Part shown: one piece after another, positions 27,490 through 47,942 of the stretch | Numbering within the stretch: the first letter of the stretch is position 1 | How the letters are laid out: the number at the start of each line of letters is the position of its first letter | NCBI GenBank assembly: GCA_903910445.1 | Contig: CAIVZR010000014.1 | Span: 48,432-112,431 of the forward strand | Reading direction: 5' to 3' | Length of the DNA stretch: 64,000 nucleotides | Origin: an uncultured Bacteroidota bacterium | GTDB taxonomy: Bacteria; Bacteroidota; Bacteroidia; UKL13-3 | Made by a program: the position numbers and the translations under genes | Notes under the pieces: model-generated | What the model saw: the letters and a program-made list of their open reading frames with translations, nothing else | What the model was told of the DNA's origin: nothing | Databases searched by the model: none

Positions 27490-28227
27490 CTATCCTCTTT
27501 CGATCACCTGATATTGATTGTCTTTAAGGATGGTATCAATGAAAGAGATGCCATCTAAATCGCTTTGAATTCCGAGCTTAGCGCATATTGAATCTTTTGT
27601 TTTTTCTGCAAAATAATTTGCATCTTCATAACTCTTGCGATATATCTGACGCCGTACTTGCTTAATTAAAGTAAGATCTCGATCGGTTAAGTTAATAGCT
27701 TCAGGAAATTGCACTACATAATCAGGATTTATCTTAGGTGCGAACACCGCTTCTTGAATATTTGTTTTTGGCTTTAAGCGAATTACGGTGGTCCCCGCAG
27801 CCATATCGGCTAGTCGTTGCCCCTTTCCATTGGCAGCAACTGATATTAATGCTACCACACCAGCGCCACCAAAACTAAATTCGACAGGAGTGATAATCCA
27901 GCGCAGAAAGTAATTTACGAATGCGGGCCGTCCTGCATCCATCATTACTACCCGTATCTGCATTATTTTTTTTCCAAAACTTTGCCCTTCTAAAAACATT
28001 TCACAAATCAAGTGGTATAGAAATACTGGAAGGTAAATTAACAGTTGGATCATAAAACTCAATCCATATTTAAGTGAAGGATTGGAGTTGATTATACGAA
28101 AGCAAATAAAAAAATAGGCGAACATTATCACCCAATCGATAAGAGTAGCAATGGCTCTATCGCCAATACCAGCTACTTCGTATTCAATCTCTACATTATT
28201 TGCTGTAATAACCTTTACAATGGCCAT
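27490..28227 (-). CDS. RDD-family membrane protein
   Basis: The RDD pattern (IGDRAIATLIDWVIM...) with 3 TM helices. Confidence 0.65.
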   Translation of the reverse strand: MAIVKVITANNVEIEYEVAGIGDRAIATLIDWVIMFAYFFICFRIINSNPSLKYGLSFMIQLLIYLPVFLYHLICEMFLEGQSFGKKIMQIRVVMMDAGRPAFVNYFLRWIITPVEFSFGGAGVVALISVAANGKGQRLADMAAGTTVIRLKPKTNIQEAVFAPKINPDYVVQFPEAINLTDRDLTLIKQVRRQIYRKSYEDANYFAEKTKDSICAKLGIQSDLDGISFIDTILKDNQYQVIERG

Positions 28228-28242
28228 AATTTTCCTGTTCGT

Positions 28243-29502
28243 TTATTGTTTTATAAATATTTTTCGATCTGATGATATTCCATCACTATGCACTATAACT
28301 GTATAAGTCCCATTCGAAAGATTAGAGATATTAAATTTTTGAGAAACCTCTCCCCCATTTGTTTTTGAGCGCATGCATAATACCAATTTCCCATCGGTGT
28401 TATAAATACAATAAGAAACCGATGCTGGTTTATTGAGAAGAAAATGAACAGTTAGCTCATTTATACTTGGACTAGGGTAAACGCTCAATTCAAGAATCTG
28501 TTGTTTTTTATAATTAATACCTGCCGATTTCGGATTCATCCATTGACCAATATTAGCAGCATAAAGCTTATTAGTTATGATATTTTTCTCATTGGTGATA
28601 TATACATTACTACTATCCTTGAAACAAATACCTTCTATTTGTCCGGTATTGGTAAAAAATCCGAAATCAATTTTGCGCTTATTTCCACTAAATATTTTAC
28701 TGCCATTAAAATCCCAAAGTAACCACAAATAGCAAAAACCATTCTTGTTATAGCTTGTGAGTGCGATTCGCTTTGATTGAGGATCGAAGCTTGCTCCAGT
28801 AATTAAACAACCAGGATCAAATGAATCGATGGGCTGAATACTATAGGTGCCGGGAATCGTTGAGAGGGTATAATGTTTTGAATGTCCATTGACCCAATCT
28901 TTACTAAACAAATGCAAGGTGTCATTCCAAACAAACATCGATTCACAATCAAAACTATTTGCATTACTTTTAGAAGAAAAATCAGTTTGATCGGAATAAC
29001 TAAAATGGATTTTTTGTGCTGTTATACTATCAACCATCTTCGATGAAAGTTGCGATAAGGCAATTTTGTAAACTATTAAATCTTTTCGATTTCCATTATT
29101 ATTCCCAAAATCTCCGATATAAAGATTATTAGCATCAACAGTCATATCCTCCCAATCATTATTGGATGAGTTACTAATAAATATTGTTTGAAGAATCATT
29201 CCAGTTGTTTTATCAAAATGATAAATAGCATGCGGATTGCCACTATCGCCAAGAGTCCATAGTTCGCCCTTAATATAAACAAGCGCGGAGGTTTCAATGA
29301 TAGTATCTGATAGCTTGTCAATTAGCTTTATTGGGCTATAGGAGGTGCTGTTATAGGTGCAACTGCCATCATTATAAATTGCACTGGGATTGTAGTTGTT
29401 TGCCTGAAAATCAGTACAACCGTTTGTTTGTGCAATTGTTACATTTGCAATCCAGGATATGAAACAGCTTACAAAAAAAAATTTCTTTAGAATCATTTTC
29501 AT
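28243..29502 (-). CDS. T9SS C-terminal-sorting-domain protein with beta-propeller-like (SdiA-regulated/phytase-like) central domain
   Basis: Signal peptide MKMILKKFFFVSCFISWIANVTIAQ. The C-terminal CTD is ...LSVYPSPSINELTVHFLL...GTYTVIVHSDGISSDRKIFIKQ. The start is ambiguous between 29502, 29526 and 29595. Confidence 0.7.
   Translation of the reverse strand: MKMILKKFFFVSCFISWIANVTIAQTNGCTDFQANNYNPSAIYNDGSCTYNSTSYSPIKLIDKLSDTIIETSALVYIKGELWTLGDSGNPHAIYHFDKTTGMILQTIFISNSSNNDWEDMTVDANNLYIGDFGNNNGNRKDLIVYKIALSQLSSKMVDSITAQKIHFSYSDQTDFSSKSNANSFDCESMFVWNDTLHLFSKDWVNGHSKHYTLSTIPGTYSIQPIDSFDPGCLITGASFDPQSKRIALTSYNKNGFCYLWLLWDFNGSKIFSGNKRKIDFGFFTNTGQIEGICFKDSSNVYITNEKNIITNKLYAANIGQWMNPKSAGINYKKQQILELSVYPSPSINELTVHFLLNKPASVSYCIYNTDGKLVLCMRSKTNGGEVSQKFNISNLSNGTYTVIVHSDGISSDRKIFIKQ
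29473..29481. repeat. A9/T9 homopolymer tract at the junction of two divergent, overlapping genes
   Basis: acAAAAAAAAAtttc. It lies inside the signal-peptide codons (KKFFF) of the minus-strand T9SS gene and about 20 nt upstream of the CATG shared-start palindrome. Confidence 0.6.
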
Positions 29503-31234
29503 GCGCAAGATAATATTTTTCTTCATTGGGTTTGCTACAGTGATGCAAGCGCAACAAATAACCCCATTTGAAATTAGTAAAGGTGTGTCAACCACAACAT
29601 TAAGTGAATGCTTGAGCTTTTACGAAAAATTGGCTAGTTCAAACAAGAGATTTGTAAAAATCACGGATGCGAATCTAAGTCCTGAGAATTTGAAGTACCA
29701 TGCTGCAGGTCAAATAAAATTAATTAGCATCACTAATTTCTCAGTGAAAAAAGAAAAAATAAAAATCTTTATCAATAATGGCATCCATCCAGGAGAACCC
29801 GATGGTATAGATGCTTCAATGATGCTTGCTCGTGATTTCCTTCAAAAACCAGCGTTGCGTAAAATGCTTGATGAAATTGAACTATTTATTATTCCTATTT
29901 TCAATACCGGAGGTGCGCAACAAAGAGGTTGCTGTAGCCGGGCCAACCAAGATGGGCCTATTGAATATGGTTTCAGAGGCAATCCTTTAAACCTGGATTT
30001 GAATCGCGATTTCATCAAATGTGATGCTTTAGAAACCATTGTTCTTCAAGATTTTTTCCAACAAACAAAACCACATTTTTTTATTGATACCCATGTTAGC
30101 GATGGTGCCGATTATCAATATACAATGACCCTAATTGCATCACAACATAACAAGTTACAGAATGAAGCACTAGATCAGTTTCAACAAAAAAAGTTACTAC
30201 CTGTATTATATCAAAGTATGAAATCGGCAAATGAGGAAATGTGCCCTTATGTTGATTTTGACAAGGAAGTTCCCGATTCGGGAATCACCTCATTCTTTGA
30301 TAGCCCCAGATATAGCACTGGATATACTTCAATGTTTAACTGTTTTAGTTTTGTATCCGAAACACATATGCTAAAACCATTTAACAAAAGGGTGAATGCA
30401 ACATATACTTTATTAAATGAAATTATAAAATTTGCTTACAATCAAAAACCTGCGATTCTTGAGGTAATGCGTCGTGCAGATAGCTTAACACAAAATCAAA
30501 AATCAATCGCATTGAAATGGGCTTTAGATACCAATCAATTTGAAGATTTGGATTTCCGAGGCTACACTGCTTTTTATGCCACAAGCCCTGTTACCAAACA
30601 ATCACAGCTATATTATAATCAAGGAGCTCCGTATCAAAAAACAATAAAATATTTCAATACATTTAATATCACCAAAAGCATCGATTATCCAAAAGCATAT
30701 GTGATGCCTTATGAGTGGTATGAAAAACTCAATTTACAGAGATACCATTTGAACATCATCATTTCAAAGGATACGAATGTTTTTGTAAAGGCATATACCC
30801 GCGTACAATTCACTGCGCGCAAAAACCCTTACGAAGGAAATATCCCGGCAGTGCTTGAATATTATATAAAAGACTCGTCGCATCAAGATTTAAAAGGAAA
30901 TTGGGTTATCATCCCATTGGAAAACAATATTCGATATCGCCGGTTTCTAACGGAAGCCATTGAACCAGAGAGCCCCGATGGTTTTTTTGCTTGGGGTAAG
31001 ATGTATAGTTTTGTACAACAAAAAGAAGGATTCAGTGATTATGTATGGGATAAACGGGCATGGGAGATTTTAGTAAATGACCACTCCTTGAATGAGAACT
31101 TTGTATTGATGAGAGATCAAGGCAAAAGTAATTTTGCAAAAAACAAGCAGCTGCAGCTTGACTTTATCTACCGTCATAGCAAATATTACGAACCTACTCA
31201 TGTGAGATTTCCCATTTTTAGAATTGATTATTAA
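29501..31234 (+). CDS. M14-family zinc carboxypeptidase, secreted
   Basis: Signal peptide MRKIIFFFIGFATVMQAQ. Zn-binding HPGEPDG (HxxE), plus NLDLNRDF. The ORF-track start at 29459 is also possible. Confidence 0.75.
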   Translation: MRKIIFFFIGFATVMQAQQITPFEISKGVSTTTLSECLSFYEKLASSNKRFVKITDANLSPENLKYHAAGQIKLISITNFSVKKEKIKIFINNGIHPGEPDGIDASMMLARDFLQKPALRKMLDEIELFIIPIFNTGGAQQRGCCSRANQDGPIEYGFRGNPLNLDLNRDFIKCDALETIVLQDFFQQTKPHFFIDTHVSDGADYQYTMTLIASQHNKLQNEALDQFQQKKLLPVLYQSMKSANEEMCPYVDFDKEVPDSGITSFFDSPRYSTGYTSMFNCFSFVSETHMLKPFNKRVNATYTLLNEIIKFAYNQKPAILEVMRRADSLTQNQKSIALKWALDTNQFEDLDFRGYTAFYATSPVTKQSQLYYNQGAPYQKTIKYFNTFNITKSIDYPKAYVMPYEWYEKLNLQRYHLNIIISKDTNVFVKAYTRVQFTARKNPYEGNIPAVLEYYIKDSSHQDLKGNWVIIPLENNIRYRRFLTEAIEPESPDGFFAWGKMYSFVQQKEGFSDYVWDKRAWEILVNDHSLNENFVLMRDQGKSNFAKNKQLQLDFIYRHSKYYEPTHVRFPIFRIDY

Positions 31235-46381: not shown

Positions 46382-46590
46382 TTTTTTAACAAGCTGTCAC
46401 AATAAATTTACAATTGCAGCGTTATTGATATAATTCGACAAAAAAACACTATACTTGTCAAACAATAAAAACGAAAAATTTACGTTATTGATAAAAAGAC
46501 ACCGGAAATTGAAAAAAACAAAAACTATTGAGGGGAGGATTGAATTATAAAGTTTTTTAATACGAAACTTGTTTAATTCAGTAAAATTTT

Positions 46591-46598
46591 TAAATTTG
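46591..46598 (+). promoter_or_regulatory. Bacteroidota-type -7 box (TAAATTTG) upstream of gldK
   Basis: The box is 21 nt before the gldK ATG (46620), with cTTGttta about 20 nt further upstream. It lies in a 238-bp AT-rich intergenic region. Confidence 0.3.
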
Positions 46599-46619
46599 CA
46601 ATCTATAATTAGTATAACT

Positions 46620-47942
46620 ATGCGTAAAAGTTTTCAATTTCTGTATGTTTTGGTAATGGCAATCGTCATTTTGGCAGGCTGTACAGGTGGTGATAATGGT
46701 CAGATGTACGGTGTACCAAACCGTCCAATATGGACTCATCCTCAACCTTTTGGGATGATTTACGTACCTACTGGAACTTACCATATGGGGCAAAGTGATC
46801 AGGAAGTGGGTTCACATCAAATTCATCGCAACAAACAAGTTTCAATTCCAGCATTCTACATGGATGATTCTGAGATTTCTAACAATGAATATCGTCAGTT
46901 TGTTTACTATGTTTCTGATTCAATTTTCAGAGAAAATCTTTCTCAAAGCATTGAAACTGTTAAGACTCAGATTGGTGAGGAAAGTGATGATCCATATTCT
47001 GTAATTAATTATAAAGAAAAATTTGATCCTGAATCTCAGGAGGCTACTGATGCTGCCCAATTAATGCAATACAAACCTGGGGAGCGTTTTATGCATCGCC
47101 GTCAGTTAGATGTACGTAACTTAATATACAAATACGAAATATTCGATTTTCAAGCTGCTGCTCGTTCTGCTAAGGTTCAAAGCAATGAAGACTTAAAATC
47201 AGCCCATAGTAACGAAGATCATTCACACTTTATTAAAAAATACAAGGTGCAAATCTATCCTGATACTTTGGTATTCGTTAGAGACTTCGCTTATTCATAT
47301 AATGAGCCAATGGCAGAAAATTATTTCTGGCATCCAAATTATGACGATTATCCAGTAGTTGGTGTGAATTGGAATCAAGCCAATGCATTTTGCTGGTGGA
47401 GGACACGTCATATGAATGATTGGGCAATGTCGGTAGGTGATTTTGAAAGAACTCAATTCTTATTGCCAACCGAATCACAATGGGAATATGCGGCACGTGG
47501 TGGTCGCGATGAAAACATGTTTCCTTGGGGGGGGCCTTATATCCGCAATACCAAAGGATGTTATTTAGCGAACTTTAAACCCGGACGTGGTAATTATATC
47601 GCAGATGGTGGCTTTTATCCTGTAAAAGTATATTCTTATTTCCCGAACGATTACGGCTTATATAATATGGCTGGTAACGTTTCTGAGTGGACTTCTTCTG
47701 CTTACTTGGAATCATCCGTTTCGGTAGTTGATGACTTGAGTCCTGATTATAAATATCAGGCTAAAGATGATGAACCAGAGACCTTTAAGCGTAAAGTAAT
47801 ACGTGGTGGTAGCTGGAAAGACGTTGGGTACTATTTGGAATGCGGTAGTAGATTGTACGAGTATCAAGATACTTGTAAATCATTCGTCGGTTTCCGTTGT
47901 GTTCAACCTTACATGGGTCGTTCTAATAAAGACAAGAAATAA
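46620..47942 (+). CDS. gldK: Gliding motility / T9SS lipoprotein GldK (PorK ortholog; FGE-sulfatase fold)
   Basis: Lipoprotein signal MRKSFQFLYVLVMAIVILAGC. FGE-like motifs WNQANAFCWW, LPTESQWEYAARGG, RGGSW and GFRCV. Confidence 0.85.
   Translation: MRKSFQFLYVLVMAIVILAGCTGGDNGQMYGVPNRPIWTHPQPFGMIYVPTGTYHMGQSDQEVGSHQIHRNKQVSIPAFYMDDSEISNNEYRQFVYYVSDSIFRENLSQSIETVKTQIGEESDDPYSVINYKEKFDPESQEATDAAQLMQYKPGERFMHRRQLDVRNLIYKYEIFDFQAAARSAKVQSNEDLKSAHSNEDHSHFIKKYKVQIYPDTLVFVRDFAYSYNEPMAENYFWHPNYDDYPVVGVNWNQANAFCWWRTRHMNDWAMSVGDFERTQFLLPTESQWEYAARGGRDENMFPWGGPYIRNTKGCYLANFKPGRGNYIADGGFYPVKVYSYFPNDYGLYNMAGNVSEWTSSAYLESSVSVVDDLSPDYKYQAKDDEPETFKRKVIRGGSWKDVGYYLECGSRLYEYQDTCKSFVGFRCVQPYMGRSNKDKK

Follow-up and report, generated by a model that had tools for sequence, protein, structure and literature searches.

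In Streptomyces coelicolor, the divergent genes scbA and scbR form a regulator/synthase switch in which the mapped transcription start sites (TSSs) cross and the transcripts overlap by 53 bp (PMC3134472). We describe a comparable arrangement in a 64,000-nt stretch of DNA from an uncultured Bacteroidota bacterium (hereafter the window, meaning the whole stretch analyzed; 92% coding, from a 37% GC lineage). Here, a gene for an M14 metallopeptidase and a gene for a secreted protein sorted by the type IX secretion system (T9SS) diverge from predicted TSSs that would cross, with predicted promoters facing each other over about 50 bp. As at scbA-scbR, the expected effects are interference of the sitting-duck or collision type and mRNAs with complementary 5′ ends (PMC3134472). 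In contrast to that system, the TSSs are predicted rather than mapped, the products are two secreted proteins, and it is the signal-peptide coding sequences (CDSs) that would overlap.

Closely spaced convergent promoters are also described for pR-pL of coliphage 186 and for the Ecl18kI and SsoII restriction-modification systems, and in Ecl18kI the R transcript begins at the start codon of the M gene, with promoter and TSS inside the 5′ end of the partner (PMC2760811). Those systems use sigma-70 promoters and a dedicated DNA-binding regulator (PMC2760811), whereas neither an operator-like element nor a regulator was identified at our locus. An inverted-repeat search for an operator returned only an imperfect palindrome within the coding sequence and the self-complementarity of the A/T run, and no separate operator-like site. 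An Rfam search of the junction gave no match at E up to 1, and a sigma-70 promoter scan of the locus gave one weak match, below the shuffle expectation, sigma-70 being the wrong model for Bacteroidota.

The boxes found at the locus are instead of Bacteroidota type. The M14-side box is an exact TAHHTTTG match to the sigma-A promoter (TAnnTTTG; PMC6847099, PMC9723704), and the T9SS-side box matches TAnnTTGY, the SM5 class of Flavobacterium psychrophilum (PMC9723704). They differ from those precedents in lying inside coding sequence, with predicted leaders of 3-7 nt against a Bacteroidia mean of 33 nt (PMC6847099); the SM5 motif is moreover unenriched in this window. Finally, divergent genes with 5′ CDS overlaps have been surveyed in prokaryotic genomes, and 75 of 75 such overlaps longer than 60 bp had misannotated starts (PMC2478687). 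The overlap considered here is shorter, 20-41 nt, and several lineages cannot avoid it, having no alternative start that keeps the signal peptide. The locus is a variant of these known architectures, face-to-face promoters and overlapping genes.

We read the junction as a compact head-to-head pair of overlapping genes with embedded promoters, in which a run of nine A residues is a stable stretch coding for Lys on one strand and Phe on the other. We give this reading a probability of roughly 0.58. Its elements, by position in the window, are:

29459-31234, plus strand: open reading frame (ORF) of the M14 metallopeptidase (PF00246), with a start at an upstream ATG that is kept across lineages.
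28243-29496, minus strand: gene of the T9SS-sorted secreted protein, with start ATG 29496 and in-frame alternatives at 29502 and 29526.
29459-29496: putative head-to-head CDS overlap of 38 nt, in which the signal peptides are antisense to each other and third codon positions coincide.
29440-29447, plus strand: predicted -7 box of the M14 gene, TACATTTG (TAHHTTTG), within T9SS codons A17-N18-V19.
29452-29453, plus strand: predicted M14 TSS, 4-5 nt from the box by the published spacing rule (PMC6847099).
29505-29512, minus strand: tentative -7-like box of the T9SS gene, TATCTTGC (TAnnTTGY, SM5 type), within M14 codons R-K-I.
29499-29500, minus strand: predicted T9SS TSS, by the same rule applied to the box running from 29512 to 29505.
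29473-29481: A9/T9 homopolymer, of invariant length in 11 of 11 strain sequences and absent from other lineages.
29500-29503: CATG palindrome holding plus-strand ATG 29501 and minus-strand ATG 29502; not conserved.
29456-29532: invariant junction, the longest stretch identical between the window and strains L001 and L009.

It is this geometry, not the palindrome or the A tract, that is unusual about the locus. The gap that gene callers leave between the two genes is 4 nt, in the source genome and also in a relative with an 86% identical T9SS protein. With no room between the genes for promoters, these must sit inside the partner gene. An original prediction made from the letters of the window had already placed each promoter, if the starts it favored are used, within the other gene's 5′ coding region, and comparative support for this is strong for the M14 gene and suggestive for the T9SS gene. 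The positions it gave for the A9 tract, the CATG and the two ATGs (29501-29503 on the plus strand, complement 29500-29502 on the minus strand) were confirmed in the sequence, and its translations of the signal peptides, MRKIIFFFIGFATVMQAQ (plus, from 29501) and MKMILKKFFFVSCFISW (minus, from 29502), are correct.

The gene identities it proposed are upheld by matches to PF00246, PF18962 and TIGR04183. The plus-strand ORF matches PF00246 at 31.3 bits (cut-off 21.6), over profile positions 5-134 of 286 only, and its translation contains GIHPGEPDG with the HxxE zinc motif, making it an M14 peptidase as judged from sequence; the database protein P0001 is 100% identical to the window product, with its start at 29501. 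In the minus-strand ORF, the C-terminal sorting domain of T9SS proteins is recognized by PF18962 (45.1 bits, residues 372-448) and TIGR04183 (36.5 bits), both over cut-off. This type A domain is combined with an N-terminal Sec signal peptide, as expected of T9SS cargo, and the signal peptide ends in IAQ as it does in homologues. The protein on record for the source genome is a 417-aa form.

We compared the junction in eight lineages, the window clade, L002, L006, L015, L094, L096, L098 and L099, of which L002 and L096 lack the M14 gene and the other six carry it. In Flavobacterium johnsoniae, TAHHTTTG is the -7 box of sigma-A promoters; it occupies -12 to -5, and the TSS follows after 4-5 nt (PMC6847099). 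In the window the motif stands before 9 of 48 genes (1.4 expected) and is 2.3-fold enriched in non-coding DNA, and it is a valid promoter marker in this genome. On the M14 side the box is found at the identical offset in five of the six M14-bearing lineages (window clade, L006, L094, L098 and L099). L098 keeps it, as TATTTTTG, despite an NV to KI change in the T9SS residues. L099, although it has lost the T9SS gene, keeps it as TACTTTTG; there it stands 53 nt ahead of the MRK ATG and is followed 5 nt later by an in-frame ATG. The box is degraded in M14-less L002 (TGATTTTG) and absent from M14-less L096. None of 110 unrelated T9SS homologues serving as background (relatives mostly at or below 47% identity, among the matches listed) has an M14-type box at the corresponding site, giving a Fisher p of 3e-8 that must be read with the shared ancestry of the lineages in mind. 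Conservation of this kind makes 29440-29447 the likely position of the M14 promoter.

The start codons follow the same comparative logic. The original prediction had both genes starting within the CATG palindrome, which does not hold across lineages: the palindrome ATG occurs only in the window clade, in L099 and in a remnant in L002, and the position reads AGG in L006, AGG in L094, CCG in L098 and ACG in L015. The conserved starts are 29459 for M14 and 29496 for T9SS. The palindrome itself is trivial, CATG occurring 217 times in the window and 17% of plus-strand ATGs being preceded by C.

Upstream of the 29501 position the M14 frame is open, with an in-frame ATG 33-36 residues before the TPFE motif in the four lineages without the palindrome ATG (L006, L094, L098 and L015). 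In the window, L006, L094, L098 and L099, an upstream ATG lies 5-11 nt past the -7 box (11 nt in the window, at 29459) and 35-37 residues before TPFE. L094 has no M14 start downstream of its upstream ATG cluster, and in L006, L098 and L015 the downstream starts are only TTG or GTG, from which presequences of 11-14 aa without a charged n-region would result. L099, which has no T9SS gene, keeps the upstream in-frame ATG and the open frame with a 6-nt in-frame length difference. Within the window clade, ATG 29501 is conserved in 11/11 sequences and is the start picked by gene callers; across lineages the comparison tips slightly toward initiation at 29459 in this clade. ATG 29501, together with the palindrome and the T9SS "MKM", may then be a clade-specific extra start, possibly also used.

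Because the conserved starts are 29459 and 29496, the CDSs would overlap by 38 nt, with K-K of each protein lying opposite F-F of the other. The overlap measures 38-41 nt across lineages and 20-29 nt in L015 (20-41 nt over L006, L094, L098 and L015). Both ORFs are real and conserved, and the overlap is kept in orthologous pairs, where a downstream start cannot remove it. In the window itself, the overlap is 38 nt from ATG 29459 and nil from ATG 29501, and both ATGs are in frame and clade-conserved. Judged by these comparisons, the overlap withstands the misannotation test in four lineages. The segment from ATG 29459 to ATG 29502 also forms the imperfect palindrome mentioned above (29459-29479 paired with 29482-29502, 44 nt; P about 3e-4 per centre).

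For the T9SS gene, no ATG but 29496 is shared by all lineages, and the ATG two codons upstream exists only where the palindrome does. Initiation in Bacteroidia is favored by A at -3 and -6 and disfavored by U at -3 (PMC6847099). ATG 29496 has A at both positions, 29502 has G at -3, and M14 ATG 29501 has U at -3. Translation of the T9SS protein thus probably begins at 29496. The sequence TAnnTTGC stands 8 nt before the equivalent of this ATG (11 nt in L015) in 8/8 lineages, including M14-less L002 and L096, where about 110 nt and about 37 nt, respectively, of former M14 5′ DNA survive at the T9SS side. In F. psychrophilum, the SM5 class drives lipopolysaccharide, amino-acid scavenging and gliding-motility genes, and porU, a T9SS gene, appears in the promoter table of the same paper (PMC9723704). 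No conserved perfect TAnnTTTG box was found on the T9SS side, a box about 181 nt upstream being inconsistent among strains. Because TAnnTTGY is unenriched in the window, the assignment is tentative, and we rate the chance that this conserved box is the T9SS promoter as a little below even. The TSS predicted from it, at 29500/29499, would leave ATG 29502 outside the mRNA and a leader of 3-4 nt before ATG 29496.

The A9 tract lies inside the overlap. On the plus strand, counted from 29459, it runs from the third base of T5 through K6 and K7 to the second base of N8; on the minus strand, counted from 29496, it encodes F6-F7-F8. It had been said to encode KKFFF of the T9SS signal peptide, which is right for F-F-F, while the adjacent 29482-29487 encode K-K. 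Lys codons (AAA/AAG) pair with the partner's Phe codons (TTT/TTC), both peptides running from Lys to Phe, which accounts for the long A/T run here. The tract is exactly A9 and in frame in all 11 sequences, from eleven samples or assemblies, as read from consensus assemblies, which hide minority tract lengths. Between the strains carrying it, DNA over the locus differs by 11-17%, and third codon positions differ by 24-36%.

This invariance is not particular to the tract. Comparison with L001 and L009 gives identical runs of 77 and 83 nt, against 83-89% identity over the locus, and within the junction 25/25 shared wobble sites are identical, against a wobble identity of 64-76% elsewhere (P about 7.5e-4 for L009). 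Since the whole 77-nt stretch is invariant, the constraint is on the junction and not demonstrably on the repeat.

Taken together in the overlapping-gene reading, the M14 promoter TACATTTG would be embedded in T9SS signal-peptide codons, the CDSs would overlap head to head from the conserved starts, and A9, fixed at nine in every clade strain, would be the Lys/Phe dual-coding core of the overlap. With TSSs at about 29452/3 and about 29500/29499, the promoters would stand face to face about 48 bp apart, leaders would be very short (3-7 nt), and the 5′ ends of the two mRNAs would be complementary. Given face-to-face promoters, transcription of one gene should interfere with the other, by analogy to scbA-scbR and phage 186 pR-pL, and mutual transcriptional interference or antisense pairing would make expression reciprocal, not coupled. 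A slip of one nucleotide either way in A9 would frameshift both the T9SS gene and the long M14 form, though nothing points to a useful rate. Runs of at least nine A or T can provoke RNA-polymerase slippage, which could reduce the in-frame yield of both products.

Several observations weigh against this reading. L015 has no perfect M14-side box, and the box in the window has no good -33 TTTG at canonical spacing, copies of TTTG at 29423-29430 lying only 9-13 nt before it; the -33 element is weak in F. johnsoniae too (PMC6847099). Leaders of at most 10 nt are a minority in Flavobacterium (13%), and leaderless transcripts make up 5.5% (PMC6847099, PMC9723704). A start at 29501 gives an 18-residue signal peptide, the length most common in the family (T of TPFE is then residue 21; median 22.5), and a start at 29459 gives one of 32 residues with an unusually long n-region. 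Among the 110 unrelated T9SS genes, 61% have an open antisense frame and 13% an ATG there as well. On the T9SS side, only in L002 and L096 is box conservation free of confounding by M14 coding, and TAnnTTGY occurs at 5 gene starts in the window against 2.8 expected. Divergent overlaps, moreover, are usually start misannotations (PMC2478687). We rejected the open antisense frame as stand-alone evidence for the long M14 ORF, as a passive by-product of hydrophobic codons that is present in 61% of controls.

Part of this evidence would fit an alternative in which the annotated state is correct for the clade: M14 would start at 29501 and T9SS at 29496, 4 nt apart, and 29459 would be a disused ancestral start in an approximately 49-nt 5′ untranslated region that holds A9, with the promoters still embedded. 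The gene calls in source and sister genomes agree with it, ATG 29501 is kept in L099 in addition to the 11/11 clade sequences, its 18-aa signal peptide is canonical and of modal length, a 49-nt leader is closer to the Bacteroidia norm, and the open antisense frame is partly a passive by-product. However, ATG 29501 carries the negative determinant U at -3, four lineages have no ATG at its position, and the upstream ATG, its frame and its distance from the box are kept in every M14-bearing lineage, T9SS-less L099 with its 6-nt in-frame difference included. We regard this alternative as unlikely, though more probable than those that follow.

Far less probable is a reciprocal either/or switch between the peptidase and the T9SS cargo operon to which slippage contributes. 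Here A9, at the exact centre of the approximately 48-bp interval between the TSSs, would add slippage at the DNA or RNA-polymerase level that removes the T9SS protein and the long M14 precursor, with ATG 29501 rescuing M14.

About as improbable, and slightly more so, is the mechanism of the original prediction, in which both genes start in the CATG and slippage in A9 frameshifts the T9SS gene while retuning M14 promoter spacing, as a coupled ON/OFF switch. The location of the tract, 5′-terminal in a gene whose product is secreted or on the surface, is the typical one for poly(A) phase variation (PMC2831843). In inlA of Listeria monocytogenes (A7/A6) and p78 of Mycoplasma fermentans, the gene for a secreted or surface protein likewise has a poly(A/T) tract among its first 10 codons, and gain or loss of one nucleotide there cuts the product short after a few residues (PMC2831843). 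Those tracts are polymorphic among strains, whereas ours is A9 in 11/11, absent from sister lineages and read on both strands. Of the features expected of a phase-variable locus, we found a tract in the 5′ coding region, but neither length variation among strains nor retention of the repeat in relatives.

The composition of the window gives this idea some footing. A9 is the only A/T run of at least 9, thus the longest, and long runs are depleted. With 7.3 +/- 2.9 runs expected from a first-order Markov model and one found, A9 is no enrichment. By the same model, A/T runs of at least 8 number 13 against 20.8 expected, which suggests selection against slippage-prone runs. Twelve A8/T8 tracts lie at 2269, 14638, 20795, 21930, 27966, 31281, 34945, 35084, 41347, 47973, 52427 and 59557. 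An A-to-G change at 29473, 29476 or 29479 would be synonymous on both strands (a AAGAAGAAA-type variant combines those at 29476 and 29479), yet none of these three interruptions is seen in the 11 sequences, and the tract and the downstream rescue ATG 29501 co-occur in one clade.

Against this stands the invariance of A9, which extends over the whole 77-nt junction, and the absence of frameshift-type variants from the 90%-identity cluster of the T9SS protein. P0242, a 409-aa T9SS call starting just past the tract, was considered as a frameshift allele and rejected: its short form is the gene caller's choice, because the DNA has a GTA-to-GTG substitution with A9 intact. Outside the clade, no run of at least 7 occurs at the site in the DNA of L002, L006, L094, L098 and L099, and L015 and L096 have no homopolymer there either. 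The site reads AAAATAAAA in L099 and has unrelated codons in other lineages, relatives' proteins showing KNLLL, KRLII, RILII and similar. The original prediction had called for comparing tract length across strains and had named orthologues without the homopolymer as refuting it; because orthologues outside the clade lack it, the switch idea fails by its own standard. Its further suggestion that A9 falls within a -7/-33 promoter region is not supported by the sequence, where no box with at most one mismatch lies between the tract and ATG 29501. The sole M14 box sits upstream, so that A9 would be transcribed, at about +21 to +30 from the predicted M14 TSS, and would lie outside the promoter spacer. 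The palindrome, as noted, is not conserved, and a literature search found no documented homopolymer phase variation in Bacteroidota. A pattern scan of a metagenome collection for the junction with A6-A12 gave 0 matches, the clade being absent from that collection. We conclude that A9 is very probably not a phase-variation switch; a single 5′ homopolymer without polymorphism data should not be taken as phase variation.

The L015 T9SS gene has, about 50-60 nt into its CDS, an A8/T8 run of its own in the signal peptide (ACT GCA AAA AAA ATG, ...TAKKM), at a position not homologous to A9.

That one ORF is no real gene, or the junction an assembly chimera, can be dismissed: divergent overlaps are usually artefacts (PMC2478687), but both proteins have curated domain matches and hundreds to thousands of homologues, and more than 10 independent assemblies, as well as four further lineages, show the same junction.

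The two proteins are each widespread, their pairing is not. The T9SS cargo belongs to a widespread Bacteroidota family (1272 matches), and the M14 protein has more than 8000 homologues; a PDB sequence search with both proteins found no homologue. Strain-level relatives come from the metagenome-assembled genomes GCA_947492885.1 and GCA_964201955.1 and from a number of Logan and ENA assemblies. Only a small clade has the divergent M14-T9SS pairing: the window group, L006/L014, L015, L094 and L098 and, on gene calls only, the contig of P0006. Among the matches listed, about 160 loci with more distant homologues of the T9SS gene were examined, and none has an M14 gene upstream. The M14 gene has been lost in L002-L005 and L096/L097 and the T9SS gene in L099, and such lineages retain about 37-115 nt of the lost gene's 5′ end beside the surviving partner. 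The M14 remnant of L002 still reads MCKIIYLFLAITSVLQVP...*. These natural reciprocal losses can be used as promoter-deletion experiments. Within the T9SS cargo, invariant motifs are GCTD...NDGSC near the N-terminus, DWE and GDFGNNxGxR (residues about 24-50 and 100-140); Pfam finds no domain besides the sorting tail, leaving an N-terminal domain without assigned function.

The T9SS gene is followed by a third gene:

27490-28227, minus strand: gene of an RDD-family membrane protein, 15 nt downstream of the T9SS gene and co-directional.

The RDD gene adjoins the T9SS gene in the same direction in all T9SS-bearing lineages except L002-L005. Because of the shared direction, the 15-nt gap and this adjacency, the two genes probably form an operon under one promoter. 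In T9SS-less L099, the RDD gene lies upstream of M14 and divergent from it, 225 nt apart, and may now depend on the retained remnant of the T9SS promoter.

If confirmed, the junction would be a conserved, documented case of bacterial CDSs that truly overlap head to head; surveys found nearly all members of this class to be misannotated. Two signal peptides would share DNA through the complementarity of Lys (AAA) and Phe (TTT) codons, and compact Bacteroidia genomes could hold promoters in a neighbor's signal-peptide codons, giving near-leaderless mRNAs. Start calls at tight divergent junctions need comparative checks in any case.

Two further tight divergent pairs occur in the window, with gaps of 15 nt (34220/34236) and 22 nt (55207/55230). 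The first is a GT2/DCD pair, in which a TAnnTTGY box lies within the GT2 CDS, 43 nt ahead of DCD. A third pair, 57345/57295, may overlap when the longest ORFs are taken. Because tight divergent junctions recur in this 92%-coding window, promoters embedded in neighboring CDSs may be a genome-wide habit of this organism. The window also has a single G/C run of at least 8, a G8 at 47527-47534, where about 0.19 would be expected from composition. It lies mid-gene in the plus-strand ORF 46569-47942, encoding W-G-G-P in an FGE/GldJ-like FPWGGPY motif, and is a slippage-prone tract less expected by composition than A9.

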